Made by a program: the position numbers and the translations under genes. This document shows positions 35,990 to 46,629 of a stretch of DNA of 52,106 bases, in pieces (within the stretch, counting starts at the first letter, position 1; every line of letters starts with the position of its first letter). The notes below the pieces were generated by a model. That model did no database searches. It was not told the DNA's origin and saw only the letters and a list, made by a program, of their open reading frames with translations. Origin of the DNA: an uncultured delta proteobacterium (GTDB lineage Bacteria; Desulfobacterota; Binatia; Bin18); the NCBI GenBank assembly GCA_963733195.1, contig CAVTCR010000066.1:1-52106 (forward strand), given 5' to 3'.

Positions 35990-36085
35990 ACCTAACGCCG
36001 CGCGCGTGCCGCGCCGGGAATAACGCGGCGTATCCTTATTCACGCATCCCACGTTCCCGGTGTCGGCTCGAAGCGCTTGTTAGCC
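35990..36085 (-). other. attC site
   Basis: Minus strand R'' GGCTAAC 4 nt after the stop of the 352-aa gene, R' GTTAGGT, inverted arms CCGACACCGGGAA/TTCCCGGCGCGG. Confidence 0.82.
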
Positions 36086-37142: not shown

Positions 37143-37291
37143 GTTCAACGGCTCGCCCAGATCAGCTGGCGCGCTGCCCTCAATCCGCCGGCGCCGCCGC
37201 CACCATCACGGCAGGCACCGGGTCCCATGATGGCATGAGCGGACGGCATAGCTCAAGCGAGAGGCACGTCAGCTCTATTGGCTTGTTAGAC
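37143..37291 (-). other. attC site of the retron cassette
   Basis: Minus strand GTCTAAC-AAGCCAATAGAGCTGAC ... CAGCTGAT...GTTGAAC, starting 6 nt after the repaired RT stop codon. Confidence 0.78.
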
Positions 37292-37297
37292 GGCATG

Positions 37298-39009
37298 CTA
37301 CACGTCGTGGAGAATTTGCTCGCGAATCCGCTGGAAAACCTGAAAGACAGGGACCAAACCCTCCGAAGTCAACGGCATCAAAGGGCTTCTCTCCAGCCGC
37401 AACGAGATCAAGAGAAAGCCGACTTACTAAGCGCTACGTTCTTCCTTGTAGCGATGTCGATGACCGTCTCAAGAATGACCGACTTCGAGTTGGGATAGGG
37501 GCAAGAGACATCATTCGTTGCGTGGGCACCGGTGGAAAGGTCAAACTCGGATCGCGCGAAGACGCGCCGTCCCTCGCTGTCGGCGGTCTTGAGGATTGAG
37601 TCTTCGTAGAGAAGCTCGACGCAGAGTGAGAAGGAAGGATTGCGATGAGGAGGTACTGGAAGCGCGAAGGAGTAGACGCCGTTCCCCCAGTTCTTGTAGG
37701 AGCCGGCGTCTTCGACCTGCGCGACGACTAGTGGGGAATCTCGGTCGAAGATGAAGACGCACGAAACCGCCTGGTGCGTTCCTGCGAGCATCTCGCATCG
37801 CTTGAGGAGGTCTTTGTCTCCCTTCGCGTGGTGAATCTGGAAGTCGAGGTCAATCTCCGGGAAGAGGCCATCTACACGGAGACGCTGCAGGGCGGTCCGA
37901 AGATGCGTGTAGTCGGTCTTGCCTTCGCAGAACACACGAAAGGGCATCTGCGGCCAGATGGACGGCCGGGTCGTAGGCTTGAAATCCGTGTCTAGAGCGG
38001 CGAGCCGCGTGGCGAGCCTACGATAAACCGGGTGATGCCAGCCTTTAACGGAGCCGAGATACTGGATCTTTCCTCGGACTACGTAGCGGAACTTCGGCAT
38101 CGACTTGGCCTGCGGACGATTCTTCCGATCTCCCTTCTTGAAACTGGCCTCGGCCGCAGCTTCTCCATGCTTTTCCCACACGTAGATGAGATTGCGGAGT
38201 GAACGGACGTACTTCTGGGGGACGTTTGGGAACTCATTGGCAACCAGACCGGTTACGAGCTGCCGCTGCGTGCGATTCCGCAGAACTGTCTTCGCAGCGT
38301 TTACGGTGAACCCGTGCTTCTCGACGATCTCCCGTAGCGCTTCACCAGCGACGACTGCACCAGTCTGCCGATCGGTAACGGCAAGGGACTGGGGAAACGC
38401 GCGACGACGAGTCGAAAAGACAAGATCGTCGCAGTAGCGCGTGTAGTAGCAGTAGTCCTTCCGGGCCTGGAGAGACAACGCTCGGTCAAGCCCACGGCAG
38501 ATGATGTTTGAGATCAGCGGTGAGGTCGGGGCTCCGTGGGGCAGTACGTTGTCGTGGCAGCAGATCTGCGCGAGCAGCGTGGCCACGTCGGGCATGTAGT
38601 TGAATGGCGGAGCCATGAACATTCCGCGCACGCGACCGAAGTTGATGGACGGGAAGAAATTCTCAAGATCAATGCGGAGAACCCACAACTGGCGCTTGTG
38701 CACCCTTGCGTTGGTCAGAATGCTTCGGGCACTGACGTACCCGTGAACGAAGGGAGGAGGCTTGTAAAACGACTTGAGTAGGGTAGCGAGTGTACGCTGG
38801 ATCTGCTTGATGGGAGCAATTGGAGCGTGGATGACCCGAGTACCCGTACCAGAGCGACGTTTGAGCTCGAACCGCTGGTAGCGATTCTTCGCGGGAAGCG
38901 CATAGAACCAGTAGTTGAGCTTCTTGAGCGGAAGACCGAGAGCGTTCGCAACCTGCGAGGTGGTGTACAGCGGTAACGGATGGTCGAAGGAAAGGGCGCC
39001 GTCTGACAT
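37298..39009 (-). CDS. Retron reverse transcriptase fused to C-terminal TOPRIM nuclease (Ec67/Eco2-like, type I-C)
   Basis: Region X NARVH, DLENFFPSI, LPHGAPTSP, YTRYCDDL, region Y LVTGL; TOPRIM CEGKTD and FDRD; C-terminus SKSAFSDLV...DFGGF.PVF recovered across indels to the stop at 37298; ATG at 39009 follows the ncRNA. Confidence 0.92.
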
Positions 39010-39019
39010 ACAGAGTATT

Positions 39020-39167
39020 CGGGGTGCGGCTCGGTTGTTCAACCTATCGCGGTACAGGGCTATGAACATGGAACCCTGGACATGCGCGCACGCAGCACGC
39101 TAAAGCAGAACGTCCGATAACCGTGGCGAGTACGCCGCGGAAAAGCAACCCATCGAGCCGCACCCCG
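39020..39167 (-). ncRNA. Retron msr-msd non-coding RNA
   Basis: Perfect 14-bp inverted repeat CGGGGTGCGGCTCG (39020-39033 / 39154-39167) enclosing hairpins CCGCGGCG-TACT-CGCCACGG, GGACGT...ATGTCC and a TGTTCA...TGAACA msd-type stem; ends 10 nt before the RT ATG. Confidence 0.85.
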
Positions 39168-39206: not shown

Positions 39207-39301
39207 GGCTAACGTCGCCGGTCACCTGCCGCCCACCGTGGCTGTTCGGCTTCAGCCAGATCCGCCAGCGGGCGGCGATGCGGTGCAGCGCCTGGTTCGT
39301 C
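39207..39301 (-). other. attC site
   Basis: Minus strand GACGAAC-CAGGCGCTGCACCG..GCCGCCC ... GGGCGGC..GGTGACCGGCGAC-GTTAGCC. Confidence 0.82.
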
Positions 39302-39361: not shown

Positions 39362-40299
39362 CTATTCGACATCGACGCGGCTCTCGGCAATCAGTTCATC
39401 GACCTTGGGGAGCGGCTCCGGCGAGTTGGGCAGGTTGGACCGGGTCATCGTGATGTCCAATCGGAAGGTGTTCGGCTCCATCTCGCCGTGTTCCCACTCC
39501 TTGTCCGTCTCCTCCCACGCCTCGTTGTCGATCAGCCCTAGCGCGTACCACTGCCTGTCGGGGACGACCACGCTCTTTTTCAAGTGGTCGTAGTAGCCCA
39601 GGGACACGTCTGTCTTCACGGTCTGGGCCACCCAATCCTCTCAACAGTGAAATGGAACTTGAGGCCTCCGACCATTAGCGATTGCCCGTGGTAGGACCAG
39701 CGCGGCTCGTGCCGGAACATACAGAGGAACCAAATCCTGTTGGCCATGTCGTGCTCCGAGGCCACGAGCTTCATCTTCTCGTTGATCCAGTGGATCACCG
39801 GGAGGCCGTCAAACAGCAGGTCCTCGACCTTCCACTTCTCCTCGATCTCGTGGGGGTGCCCGTCGAACGGGTAGAGGGAGGCCGTCTCGAAGGTCAGGGT
39901 CAGGCGCCGCGCGACCACCTCGCGGTGGACCCTGATCTTAATCGTATCGTCCTTCGCCTTCATCGCGGACGCCATCTCGATCCCGACCCGGTTGGCCTTC
40001 TTCAATGCATCCCGTGTGAAGCCCGAGTCACTGAACATGATCGCCCGGTCAGGCTTCAGGTCGCGGATCTTCGACTCGAACGCATCGATGAAGCCGATCC
40101 CGATGGGCCTAGCGTGGTCTTTGCACTCGACCAAGATGAAGTGCGGGACGCCGTTGAGCGTGCCCCGGACTTCCACGTCCATATCCCGCTCGCCGTCCGG
40201 CCCTGTGATCCACTGCTCCGTCTTCACGGCCGAGCCGGGGTCGAGGGCCACCATGACCGTCCCGACCAGCTCCCGGTACTCATCACCTGCTTTTGCCAT
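39362..40299 (-). CDS. Cassette-borne PD-(D/E)xK restriction-endonuclease-like (Mrr_cat type) protein, one frameshift near 39630
   Basis: RDMDVEV...ILVECKD, SGFTRDA; ORFs 39616..40299 and 39362..39631 join; no cognate methylase in the cassette. Confidence 0.78.
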
Positions 40300-41700: not shown

Positions 41701-42282
41701 TAGGAGGTTCACCTTCATGAATCGCAGGATACATGAAGCTAACTACAGTCCAAGGCAAGGGCGTCACCGCGAGGTGAGGTCTGAAGGAAGCCGGCGACGG
41801 TACGGCGAGGCGAGGAACACGAACGCTATAGAAGGCTCGTTTCCCTGGGACGAGTTGGCACAACACAACGAAGTCCTGTGAATCGGGGGATAGGGTAAAT
41901 GGCGCGCTTGTGCCGTAACCACTCACGGTCTTATCCGGGGAGATCTGCTCCGCGTCCTGGGAAGTGGCGTGCCACGGAAATTGACTGCGGGGAGGAGTAA
42001 TCCTCTCTGACCCGGAGCAGCAGTCAGCCGAGGTCATAGTAGCTCAACATCCTTCGGGGTGCCGAGTGAAGGACCGAACAGGGAGGACAAGGCGGAGGCA
42101 TGACCGCCTCGACGACGCCAGACCCGAACCAGGCGGCGGCTCCGCGGCGGAGGGTCATCGACCCAGCCTTGGGCGAGACTGTCTGACTTCCCATCCTGCC
42201 TGAACCGCCTAGTGCGGACCCGCATGCTAGGTGGTGTGGGGAGGGCGATCAGCGATGATCGCCCTTACCCGATTGGGCCGCG

Positions 42283-43040
42283 TCACAATCGCTCTGCGGC
42301 GGCAAGCTAGTCTGCAGAGATTCGACCGCCATGCGAGGCGCAACTGCACAACGGGCTCGCGCCATAGAATTTACTATGCTCCTGAATCTTGAGACTTCCC
42401 ACGGGGAACCAACACCGCGTTCGATTCCGGTCAGTGGCAGCTCAGTCGTTTTGCCCAACTACGCTTGCCACCCATGAATCGGCGGCACCCGCAATGCGCC
42501 ACTCGGCCTCATGGAGATGATCTGCGATCCGATGTAGGACAGCAAATCGAGCGCTCGTCGCAGACTGCGGTTATCGAAGAGTATCTGTCCAGTGGAAGAG
42601 ACGTGCAGCCCATTTAGCCTCGCGACGACCAAGATCTGGAACAGATGCTTCGAGAAGGCGGAGCCATGGCCAACGTATGCCACTCGATCTCCACCGAAAT
42701 CCTCGATCCACTTACGGGAAATGACTAGGCCATACTGTCCAAAGGTCACGGCATGCGCTGCTATCGATCGTCCATCCGGAACCTCCGTAAAACATAGCAT
42801 TGGAACCTTACCCTCAATGGTCCCGATTCCCGAAAACAGGATATTTCTCTTGACTGAAGATGTTTCCGAGACTTCGTTGTAGCGACGCCAGCTGCCGGTT
42901 CACGCATCGGCATGGCAAGCGGAAACTATCGCCGAACTGGGTCCTATCCGAGGTTGGTTTCAAAGCGAACCATGTGGTCCGTGACATGAGGCCGCTGGGC
43001 GACAGCTTGCTCGAGATATTCTGCTCGTGGCAGGCAATGT
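42283..43040 (-). CDS. AbiGi-like abortive-infection family protein (cassette gene; frameshifted, ends approximate)
   Basis: VPMLCFTEVP...AAHAVTFGQYGLVISRKW...GGDRVAYV resembles the AbiGi CFT...H...YG signature. Confidence 0.55.
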
Positions 43041-43092: not shown

Positions 43093-43182
43093 GCCCAACG
43101 CAAAGGATTTAATCCGTCCTGCGGATAAAGCAAGAGGTGTACTTTTCTCCCTACCCAGCAGGACGCTTAAATCCTGTTGAAC
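43093..43182 (-). other. attC-like site closing the IS91-like element
   Basis: Minus strand GTTCAAC-AGGATTTAAGCGTCCTGC ... GCAGGACGGATTAAATCCT-TTGC-GTTGGGC. Confidence 0.75.
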
Positions 43183-43459
43183 GTAACCGCGGCTCTCAGA
43201 CCGTCGGCACTATGGGGATTCTATCGAGGCTGGCCCCTCCTGCCAATGGTGATACTGCCAGTGAGAGCATGAGGGAGGAGGTGGAGAAGGGGACGAACGA
43301 ACGCTGGCGGTGGGCAAGGCGGCTGCGGTTGGCTACTCGCAAGGTCCATGACGACTAGAGAGCCCGGCGATAGATACACGTGGGTCGTCTGCTGCATGAG
43401 GAAGATCACGAGTAGTGAAGGCGGAATGGTAGTTGATCGAGCCGGAACGGGGAAGCCTA

Positions 43460-44682
43460 TCATGGTGGTAGCCCTCGCTGCGGCAGGAGGCGGGCAATCC
43501 TGTGCCAGTGCGTGCCAGCACAGTGGGGGCAGGGAGCGGCGGCGGTAGGTGAGGGAGCCGGGTCGGTGGCTGGCACTGACCCGGGAGACAGGAGAGGAGT
43601 CGCGGCCACGAGCGCCAAGAGCTGGCGGGCGCGAGCGAGCTTGGCCTGCCGTGTGCGATTAGCCAGCAAGCCATAGTGGCGAATCCGTACGAACCCGGTG
43701 GGCACGACGTGGAGCAGGAAGCGGCGGAGGAATTCTGTAGCCTGCAGTTCCATGAGTTTCGTGCGGCCTTGGGTCGCATAGTCTTTATACTGAAAGCGCA
43801 CGACGCCGTCGCCGACAAAGACCAAACGTGAATTGGCGATGGCCACCCGATGGGTGTAGCGGCTGAGATACTTCAGCACCTGCTCGGGACTGCCCCAGGG
43901 CGGTTTGGCATAGACCACCCACGGGTTTGGCGTAGAGCTGGCTGCCGCAAGGAATTCCATGCGGCCTCCTCGGCCCACGCGGCACTCGCGCCGGCAAAGG
44001 TCAGCCGCTGCTGACTACGTAACCGCTCCAGCCCCGCGAGATACTTGCCCCGGAAGACTGCGCCCAGGGCTTTGACGGCAAACAGAAAGCGGCGGTGACA
44101 GGCGTGCCATTGCGTGCCGTCTGGACTCAGGCCTCCGCCCGTCACCACACAGTGCACGTGAATATGCTCGGTCAAGGTCTGGCCCCAGGTGTGGAGAACC
44201 GCCGTGATGCCGAGTTCGGCCCCGAGATGTTTGGGATCACGGGCAAACTCCTGCAAGGTCTGGGCGGCGGTTTGGAACAATAAGTCGTAGAGGGTCCGTT
44301 GGTTCACGCGAATCAGAGGATTGAGTTGATGGGGTAAGGTGAAGACAACGTGGAAGTAGGGCACCGGTAGCAGCAAGGCCTGCTCCGCAGCTAACCATTT
44401 GGCACGTGCACTCCCTTGGCACTTGGGGCAGTGCCGATTGCGACACGAGTCGTAACAGACCCGCTCCGTCCCGCAACTCACACATTGTTCGACATGCCCG
44501 CCTAACGCTGCTGTCCGACACTGCGCAATGGCCCGTAAGACGCGCGCTTGCTCGTGCGAGACCGCATGCGTGGCCCGAAACGCTGCGCCATACGCCCGCA
44601 CGATGTCGGCGACTTCAAAGGGCGGAGGCGAGGGATGAGCGAGAGCGGGAGGCGCTGTCGAAGGCAACGACAGCGGCAGCAT
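43460..44682 (-). CDS. IS91-family HUH (Y2) transposase with Zn-binding domain (frameshift near 43930)
   Basis: CRTAALGG...SCRNRHCPKC, HVVFTLP, LHTWG..EHIHVH (HUH), YLSRYTHR, EFLRRFLLHV..GFVRIRHYG. Confidence 0.93.
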
Positions 44683-44685
44683 CGG

Positions 44686-45535
44686 TTATCCCGCCGCCTC
44701 GACGTCCGGTAAGCTCTCCAAGGGTGACCCGTGCGCGGTCAGATGATGTTGCGCGAGGTGCACGTAGTGCATGGTGGTCGTCACACTCTCGTGGCCCAGC
44801 AACCGTTGCAGAGTTGCCAGATCCGCGCCGCCTTCCAACAAGTGGGTCGTAAACGCATGGCGCAACGCATGAATGCCGCCCGCTTTGGTAATGCCCGCGC
44901 GCTCCTTGGCTGCGTAATACATGCGTTGCGCTGTCTCGATGGGCATCGGCGCCGGCTTGCTTTGCCGGGGGAAGAGCCACGGTGGGGTCGGCCGATACAA
45001 CTGCCAGTAGCGGCGTAACTCGGCCACGAGGCGTGGGCCGAGCAAGCGTGTAGCGATCCTTGCGCCCTTTGCCTTGTTCGACGCGCAGCATGCCGCGCCC
45101 GGCGTCAATGTCACTGACTTGCAGGCGCACGACCTCACTGACGCGTAACCCACCGCCATAGGTGGTCATCAGCAGGGCACGCTGGCGCACGGTGGTCGTA
45201 CTGGCCAGCAACCGCGCCACCTCTTCGCGACTGAGCACTTCCGGCAACGTCTTGGTCCGCTTGGGTAAGGGCACATTCGGCCAGGGCCGACGGAGGGTCT
45301 GCGTGTAGAAAAACCGGATGCCCATGATGGCCACCCGCACGCTGCTGGCCGAGAGGTGGCGCTCTTCAATCAGGAACCGAATATACGTCTGGAGTTGCGC
45401 CTCACTGAGCGTGTCGGGCCGTTGGTGATAGTACTTGGCGATGCCCTGGACTGCCGTCAGATATGCTTCTTGCGTCCGGGGTGCCATCCCATGCAGAATC
45501 AGCGCCTGCTGCATCCGCTCGCGTAACTCGCCCAT
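44686..45535 (-). CDS. Tyrosine recombinase (IntI/Xer-related, no IntI-specific insertion), frameshift near 45045
   Basis: [37 protein letters not shown]...TTMHY; start MGELRERM with RBS AAGGAGG. Confidence 0.92.
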
Positions 45536-46629
45536 ACTGACCTCCTTGGCGTCCGTGGCCTCCACGACCACGACGCAGTAATTTGAGGAGGTCATGACGC
45601 ATAAGGATAGGAGTTGCCAAGCCTCGGAGCGAGGACACGATAGCAACAGAAGAAAATTTCACTGGAAGTTATGAACCGAGGAGCCGCCGCGCAGCGGTTT
45701 CGTTCAACTTTAATTCAACGGCAATGCTCCTGGCTATTAGCAGAAACATCTTCCTAGCAATAGCCAGAACGGTCTACCGGTAGACAGCTCTATACGTATA
45801 TTAGTAGGAACATTTATCTGGCTACATATGGGAAGTTTTCCAAAAGCCCTGCAAAAATACTGAAAGGGCATAGTCCTTTTTTGTCCGTTTAATCCTCACT
45901 TTCCGATCAGTTTGTGAGATCAATAAAAACAACCACTTGCCCGTCCGGTAAATCAGTCCGACATTCCGTACACAATTTCCAACAGCAAGCATCAACGTTT
46001 CCTCTATGATGCCGATACCGCCTCTGAAGCCACGTGTTTCTCCCAACGTCGCGTGGCTAGGGCACGGGGGATGGTCTCCCGTGCTCCTCCTGTACGCTCC
46101 TGCCACCACTCGCAGAAAACTTCAGAAAACAATTCTCTCCTCCGTGTTTTGGCTTGGTGAAAATGGGCGCTAGCAAGCGCGCAAACAGACACTCCTGGTG
46201 CGGCCTTTCGGGATCATTCACAAATTGTTTTTGATGCAAAGGAAATCAGGAGGTTAGAATAGGGCGAACTTGACATACGGGCCGCTTATCGGACATTGAC
46301 GGAGGTAGAGAAGTTTTTCAGGTCAAATTGAACGGAAAAAGCGAAAGCGACTTCCGCCAGGAGCAGAAATTGAGGCGAGAGAAGCTGAAGCCAAACGAAG
46401 AAAATGATGGAAATAGAGAGTGGCTCTAACGCACCTTACTAATTTCTAAATAGCTCCACACTCGATGGAAAGTGATAATCTATTGCGCATAACTGTAAAA
46501 CAAGCTCTACGCCGCTCTCTTGGCGGCAGAAGCTCATTCGTCTGTTGAGTGCCACATGTAGCACTTTCCGTCCAATGTGTTTCTATTTAGGTGAGCGATA
46601 ATGTATGAATGTGGAGTACTGAAGATAAT

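Follow-up and report, generated by a model that had tools for sequence, protein, structure and literature searches.

A decayed IS91-family element with a tyrosine recombinase gene at the head of a cassette array hints at a link between rolling-circle transposons and integrons

ISfinder lists members of the IS91 family that carry a phage-type integrase gene upstream of the transposase gene, for example ISShvi3, and the role of the recombinase in this int-carrying subgroup is unexplained. Likewise, cassette arrays without an integrase (attC clusters that have no integron integrase, CALINs) are frequent and still call for an explanation of how they arise and are kept up. XerCD integrates folded single-stranded phage DNA (CTX phage and integrative mobile elements exploiting Xer, IMEX), and IntI acts on the bottom strand of attC. 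Elements that depend on single-stranded DNA are reported to cluster in integrons (PMC7923331). For ISCR28, attC sites were predicted at or right after the IS91-like element, as data not shown in that account, and passive shuffling was suggested (PMC12772301). Here we analysed a 52,106-nt stretch of DNA of an uncultured delta proteobacterium (Desulfobacterota; Binatia; Bin18; positions 1 to 52,106 of contig CAVTCR010000066.1, assembly GCA_963733195.1), hereafter the window, in which an IS91-family element with an upstream tyrosine recombinase gene precedes an array of attC sites on the same strand. The data hint that rolling-circle transposons and integrons are linked in a way not yet described, and they tie CALINs to the int-carrying IS91 subgroup.

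When the minus strand was read again, the element was found exactly where a first-pass annotation of the window had placed it, from G/TT-GAAC (45708-45702, with G at 45708, TT at 45707-45706 and GAAC at 45705-45702) up to a hairpin site of 90 nt (GTTCAAC...GTTGGGC at 43182-43093). The first bases of the element, directly behind a repeat that we call type A, are GAACGAAACCGCTGCGCGGCGGCTCCTCGGTTC. Two genes are packed within 2.6 kb, and the order on the minus strand is int, tnp, guide and hairpin, TTGC, GTT and GGGC. The trinucleotide GTT, as crossover or target, is common to the left flank (45706-45708, minus strand) and to the right end of the element, where the spacer TTGC is followed by the terminal GTT (43099-43097) and by GGGC, the first bases of the next unit (43093-43103 as a whole, minus strand). 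Homology among the seven hairpin copies of the genome ends after this GTT, and a soil-metagenome contig that is identical over 179 nt diverges past 43097. The bases common to both junctions are GTTG in the window and GCGTT in the copy on contig C15 of the same genome, and relatives obey the same rule with 3-8 shared bases. The element fills a cassette slot: it is preceded by a repeat that ends in GTT, its own end is GTT, and a co-oriented attC array follows. The gene-cassette grammar proposed before, with its G/TT boundaries, is genuine and recurs in relatives.

The window element is a decayed IS91-family copy, as both genes are frameshifted, which had not been noted before. The int gene (44686-45535, minus strand) encodes a Xer-like tyrosine recombinase and is frameshifted near 45043-45060, with Phage_int_SAM_4 and Phage_integrase split over two frames. 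The tnp gene (43460-44682, minus strand) encodes an IS91-family HUH (Y2) transposase and is frameshifted near 43922-43940, with Zn_Tnp_IS91 and Y2_Tnp split at profile position 88; among the open reading frames (ORFs) of the window, PF14319 was matched with an E-value of 3.7e-32 and PF04986 in two pieces. The stop of int is overlapped by the start of tnp. Because soil-metagenome relatives lack one base at exactly both frameshift places (45043/45044 in int and 43922-43940 in tnp), the window copy is either dead or misassembled at two points, and metagenome contigs at 90-99% identity leave the frameshifts as either genuine or assembly errors. In the intact relative L052 the transposase reached 428 bits with NF033538 (cut-off 125) and Int reached 223 bits with the Xer-type model NF040815 (cut-off 220), and the XerD and XerC models gave 186 and 180 bits, both under their cut-offs. 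With the IntI model TIGR02249 the Int of the intact relative scored 194 bits, below the cut-off of 265, and it has a 35-residue gap opposite the IntI-specific insertion; the two pieces of the window int scored 94.8 and 69.8 bits. Identity to the IntI of the same genome is 31%. The domain matches and the gap confirm the proposed IS91-family transposase behind a tyrosine recombinase without the IntI insertion.

A search with one genome per species returned more than 572 relatives in many phyla; 80 metagenome loci were added, and 160 loci were analysed. In 147 of these 160, int lies directly upstream of tnp, and in 11 of the other 13 the region is cut by the contig start.

The right end of the element carries a conserved imperfect hairpin (43104-43175, minus strand; 85.4 bits with the hairpin model R1) with an 18-bp stem, one mismatch, one bulge and a variable loop. 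A 15-nt stretch, GCGGTTACGTTCAAC (43176-43190, minus strand; GCGGYTNNGTYCAAC in relatives), is located about 270 nt beyond tnp at the 5' foot of this hairpin and is complementary to the left junction GTT|GAACGAAACCGC; we refer to it as the guide. When the left junction GTTGAACGAAACCGCTG was aligned to the reverse complement of the 5' flank of the hairpin, CCGCGGTTACGTTCAAC, 15 of 17 positions matched, so that the complementarity between start and end is real but not of the extent of 16/18 given before. A 116-nt stretch with the hairpin folds as single-stranded DNA with -23.8 kcal/mol (z -3.94), which was equalled by none of 200 shuffles. Across 15 aligned family members 78.5% of the cells of the 18-pair stem are paired, compared to 35-52% in slid controls, and 9 of the 18 pairs are changed on both sides. 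Homologous int and tnp elements share this hairpin as the conserved right end of the subgroup, with covariation in the stem.

In the genome itself there are seven hairpin copies, every one ending in ...GCGTT and divergent beyond. Four belong to diverged or deleted elements (C66, C15, C48 and C77), two to right-end fragments of 405-475 nt (C47 and C65), and a solo copy on C18 stands between ordinary genes. The copy on C15 is the sole other full one, has 77% identity and also starts with GTT|GAACGAAACCGC. A search with nhmmer and the seven local copies yielded no additional copies, and no Rfam family matched the hairpin or the type A repeat.

The same architecture was found in about 30 loci, in which a left end complementary to the guide goes together with a guide abutting the 5' foot of the conserved hairpin, and in which a motif placed 4-6 nt past the 3' arm exactly repeats the bases with which the left flank ends. 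Guide and junction motif covary across subfamilies (AAC/GTT, AAACG/CGTTT, AAGTC/GACTT and AAATC/GATTT), and both junctions share 3-8 bases in the 19 loci listed. GTT is followed by RRRY in 12 of 25 relatives, where chance would give 1 in 16, and the hairpin is kept together with tnp in many phyla. At the left end (45673-45705, minus strand), GAAC is followed by a GC-rich palindrome and CGGTTC. This end was compared with the C15 copy and with two near-identical plasmid-borne IS1294-like copies, L131 and L132, which begin flank|GAACCACGGCAGCC...CCGGTTCG. The latter read flank|GAAC-palindrome...TTTCCTATACGT|CAAG or |GAAC, with zero bases common to both junctions. From the comparison with these two copies, the left end is of the terIS type found in IS1294-like elements, and the right end has something extra. 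In L059, a contig of a Kuenenia metagenome-assembled genome, the right end of one copy joins the left end of a second one at about 2690-2800 (...CCTATACA|TTGAACTAAACCGC), which would be either a head-to-tail tandem or a joint caught in the assembly.

For the integron context, relatives were first recognised as members of genuine arrays by visual inspection and a test of the cassette grammar, and 11 attC sites of this kind were made into an attC covariance model, R2, with 13 pairs and a consensus of classical R box, 6-7-nt spacer and L box. One subfamily keeps to the boundaries of cassettes; it shows a strong enrichment in arrays, shares their orientation and is often found at their head. In 5 of the 15 relatives with enough downstream sequence (L048, L040, L064, L161 and L171) the next cassette has an attC R'' that is reverse-complementary to the junction over 8-13 nt, the number of bare 7-mer matches expected overall being about two. 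L048 is part of an integron whose divergent intI is 59% identical to the IntI of the source genome; here the element is located exactly at R' of a canonical attC, and the displaced AGAC stands after the GTT of the element. L038, the closest relative, directly follows an attC. Almost all distinct R2 sites in the 160 loci (21 of 22) are on the strand of the element, and five of the matched loci are outside the training set. In left flanks R'' was seen in 5 of 16 cases compared to 2.7 expected, in a test that was partly mis-anchored and with an exact match only in L048. When an empty site was sought in 40 relatives, none was found and there was no synteny. In the source genome R2 gave 51 matches, which are clustered, and six of the nine hairpin sites found with R1 have a co-oriented attC match within 4 kb downstream, the chance being about 0.015 each.

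These ends suggest how the element could move. By analogy to IS91, the HUH transposase would release a circle of the bottom strand, starting at the hairpin end and finishing at the GAAC end; in IS91 it is the bottom-strand circle that is inserted (PMC13181058). The strand logic fits, because the strand inserted by IS91 is the bottom strand of the cassette orientation here. The two ends of the circle could pair through the 15-nt guide, which would put the joint at the base of a long imperfect attC-like hairpin, and the observed joint complementarity and guide covariation support this step. The circle would then integrate at a short site whose sequence repeats the joint (GTT|RRRY in this subfamily), with a strong preference for integron att sites, which is supported by the observed junctions and the array enrichment. 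Strand exchange at GTT would be catalysed by a tyrosine recombinase, either the Int of the element itself or an IntI provided in trans by the host, and would resemble the integration of folded single strands by IntI or XerCD. For this step the Xer/IntI-like nature of Int was counted. That a tyrosine recombinase acts at GTT is our tentative reading, to which we give slightly less than an even chance, and its substrate would be the folded joint. If the substrate of a tyrosine recombinase is indeed a single-stranded circle from an HUH enzyme, the two enzymes together would constitute a new mode of mobility and a new route for seeding cassette arrays or moving them between genomes. From the interpretation in the first-pass annotation the gene pair, the cassette grammar, the co-oriented array and the strand logic remain, but the hairpin is no canonical attC.

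Several observations weigh against a recombinase acting at GTT. No R2 match was obtained at the hairpin (43093-43190) with E<=5, the spacer between the 5' AAC and the stem is 0 nt in the hairpin compared to 6 in the aligned attCs, the 3' spacer is 4-5 nt compared to 7 nt, and the extrahelical bases do not appear to be conserved. R2 was trained on only 11 sites, which had been picked by our own cassette grammar. Thus, of the attC-like ends proposed before, the boxes (R'' GTTCAAC at 43182-43176, R' GTTGGGC at 43099-43093), the left junction GTTGAAC complementary to R'' and the G/TT boundaries hold, whereas the missing R2 match and the 0-nt spacer do not fit. Among the homologues, the enrichment in arrays that was to be looked for is seen, with a true cassette next to 5 of 15 assessable loci. 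An attC body directly before the left end is present in only 4 of 90 loci, L038 and L048 among them, and left flanks fold with z<-2 in 2 of 25 cases compared to 20 of 25 element ends. The shared motif is missing at the right end in four loci (L051, L107, L079 and L083). The same guide and hairpin, with the end TATACGTT, are present on C47 in an intact relative that lacks int and whose tnp ORF encodes 393 aa. Two acidobacterial copies of the CGTTT subfamily on one contig (CGTTTGAAC...AACGTTTT) are 100% identical and have unrelated, ordinary intergenic flanks; insertion at non-attC sites, which had been named as an argument against a cassette-like element, therefore does occur in this subfamily, while L048 and others lie in true arrays. 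The unit after the window element has no recognisable attC for 3.8 kb, an intact IntI is encoded on contig C33 of the same genome, and no circle junction was found in the soil-metagenome contigs, the only contigs examined. Finally, canonical IS91 inserts without a recombinase (PMC13181058).

The HUH transposase could instead work alone by an ordinary IS91-type rolling circle, with the hairpin as oriIS and GAAC plus palindrome as terIS, an alternative which we regard as a serious one, albeit with distinctly less than an even chance. The shared GTT would then be a target or ter rule, the guide would pick targets by base pairing as in IS608, and att sites would be struck as look-alikes of the element's own end (hairpin, then GTT). 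Int would be an accessory, like orf121 in the control of IS91 termination, or a resolver of multimers. This is in line with the left end homologous to terIS of IS1294-like elements, with right ends (...CCTATNCGTT) that are by eye close to the canonical ...TTTCCTATACGT, with the identical architecture of the int-less C47 element and with the non-att insertions in Acidobacteria. The left-truncated copies with a constant right end (C47, C65 and C18) resemble products of early termination from the hairpin end. In addition, orf121 of IS91 lies upstream of tnpA with overlapping stop and start, like int, and is required for precise cleavage at terIS (PMC13181058). However, the two junctions of canonical copies have no bases in common, whereas in the elements studied here 3-8 bases recur on either side of the joint. 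The array excess (5 of 15; 6 of 9) is far over what a motif of 4-7 nt gives, and almost every assessable member has retained Int. Even with all steps carried out by the HUH enzyme, the elements would be a new att-site-targeting class with a testable guide-based target rule.

The exact G/TT junctions on both sides, the intact IntI in the genome and the position directly after a type A repeat, which elsewhere is an array head, would also be expected for a passive cassette that landed once and is now moved only by the host IntI, reading the hairpin as an attC without involvement of the element's own genes. In integrons, a cassette is expected to enter an array at its first position. The same idea was put forward for ISCR28 (PMC12772301). 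We consider it improbable here: the hairpin gives no R2 match and its spacer geometry deviates, the same ends are found in subfamilies outside arrays where the targets follow the element's own guide, and the hairpin is conserved with tnp across many phyla. Mere coincidence, with the hairpin as a terminator or unrelated palindrome and the GTT matches by chance, could be argued from the shortness of GTT and from the window copy being a pair of pseudogenes. But the covariation in the stem, the seven identical boundaries, the covariation of guide and junction and the cassette complementarity of 8-13 nt make it very hard to believe. A bolder extension of the recombinase reading, which we think is unlikely, is that int- and tnp-carrying IS91 elements are the mobile founders of arrays, with Int and hairpin as integrase and attachment site and with cassettes recruited at GTT. 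The rolling-circle transposase would then provide the single strand in its folded form and mobilise the platform. If true, it would explain why elements and type A repeats stand at the heads of intI-less arrays (CALINs), and the elements would be a still-existing intermediate that connects Xer-type recombinases with the integrases of integrons.

The type A repeat at the left flank (45709-45844, minus strand; ends in ...AATTAAAGTT directly before the element) is present in 10 strong copies in the genome, as found with nhmmer. Its length is about 135 bp, with a long form of 250 bp (45709-45957 on the minus strand in the window). All copies end in GTT and are divergent beyond, and the left flank of the repeat likewise ends in GTT or CTT. 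Different units follow the repeat: true cassettes at C19:108547-108677 and C28:39296-39433, with an attC R'' that complements the junction over 7 and 8 nt, respectively, a 7-attC array at C24:50314-50449, and IS91-like elements in the window, at C1:40218-40349 and at C47:68314-68470. Possible readings of the repeat are an attI-like head of arrays or a miniature element that obeys the same junction rule. That type A is itself an attC was ruled out by its multibranched fold (z -2.05) and by the lack of an R2 match.

The array downstream of the window element comprises three attC sites, all on the element's strand. Site 1 (39207-39301, GACGAAC...GTTAGCC) scored 33.3 bits with R2 (E 1.2e-5 in the window), site 2 (37143-37291, GTCTAAC...GTTGAAC), after a reverse-transcriptase gene, 22.5 bits (E 0.0036) and site 3 (35990-36085, GGCTAAC...GTTAGGT) 24.9 bits (E 0.001). 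With these three co-oriented matches, the position at the head of an array that was assigned to the element earlier holds, and this arrangement recurs. The array is intI-less, as described, only in the local sense, since the genome has an intact IntI on C33 (477 bits, cut-off 265) and four IntI fragments elsewhere. No R2 match is near the intact gene (C33:20009-21097, minus strand). Two of the fragments, C32:15705-16079 (plus strand) and C1:40645-40977 (minus strand), are co-oriented with arrays downstream of them, which is the arrangement of 'inverted' integrons. A crude attC grammar scanner picked only the element's own hairpin and one other site in the window, equal to the shuffled expectation, and nothing beside the intI on C33; it was replaced by R2. 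The array was not apparent from a sliding fold profile either.

In the unit that follows the element, the expected R'' GCCCAAC is absent on the element strand for 3.7 kb. At 42274-42283 (minus strand) there is GCGGCCCAAT, in which 9 of 10 positions agree with the junction GTTGGGCCGC when the latter is reverse-complemented, with a chance estimated to be near 0.09, and which adjoins an intron-like repeat. This could be what is left of the attC of the next cassette after its splitting by the intron. This repeat (41701-42282, plus strand) is 580 nt long, matches the group II intron domains D1-D4 (RF02001, 108 bits), has no reverse-transcriptase ORF and is oriented opposite to the cassettes. Its other copies at C55:5186-5763, C56:71246-71832 and C6:101599-101936 are all within about 40 nt of R2 matches, and it looks like an ORF-less attC-targeting group II intron. 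On the other side of the element, a 145-nt element (46446-46590) has 32-nt inverted arms and resembles a miniature inverted-repeat transposable element, because the related genome G010 has eight copies of it with 84-88% identity. Thus both flanks of the IS91-family element are repeats, the group II intron-like unit and the 145-bp inverted-repeat element.

With respect to cassette content, the array units located between attC sites encode a 553-aa reverse transcriptase (RVT_1; 37408-39069, minus strand) and a protein with an Mrr-type restriction endonuclease domain (39616-40299, minus strand), which is defence-like content. The cassettes beside related elements in L064 (5560-6160), L161 (2520-2960) and L085 (2130-2700) carry toxin-antitoxin pairs, which were judged by eye from the translations as RelE/ParE-like, HicAB-like and DUF433 plus PIN-like.

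In the literature that was searched, no account was found of the rule for guide and hairpin, of the complementarity at the joint or of the position at the head of arrays. The coupling, taken in the first-pass annotation as not known to be described, is only partly so, with ISShvi3 and ISCR28 as partial precedents. Like IS91, IS801 and IS1294, the element has an NF033538 transposase, GAAC with a subterminal palindrome on the left, a subterminal palindrome on the right and an upstream ORF whose stop overlaps the start of tnp. In difference to IS91, where the upstream ORF is orf121, it encodes a 300-aa tyrosine recombinase here, and in difference to the family as a whole the left end is complemented by a 15-nt guide, att sites are preferred by the subfamily and the junctions share 3-8 bases. 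IS91-family junctions are characterised by sharing no bases, with only the target tetranucleotide beside oriIS, and this does not describe the elements studied here. The ISShvi3-type members have the same gene pair. ISCR elements are without int, and no joint or guide rule is reported for them in the ISCR28 account (PMC12772301).

With integron cassettes and attC sites the element shares RYYYAAC...GTTRRRY, an imperfect hairpin with a variable loop, G/TT boundaries, co-orientation and an R'' that complements its own start. It differs from them by its two genes in 2.6 kb, the absence of a spacer between the 5' AAC and the stem, and its own recombinase and transposase. The IS1111-attC group and the group IIC-attC introns are likewise enriched in cassette arrays, at fixed attC positions. 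However, these interrupt the attC, by DEDD transposases or reverse splicing, whereas the element described here stands between units and is co-oriented with them. Closest to the suggested mechanism are the XerCD and IntI systems, with which the element has in common a recombinase of the Xer/IntI clade beside a producer of single strands and a forked hairpin joint carrying the crossover, the latter here predicted from sequence alone. In difference to these systems, an HUH transposase would be the source of the single strand.

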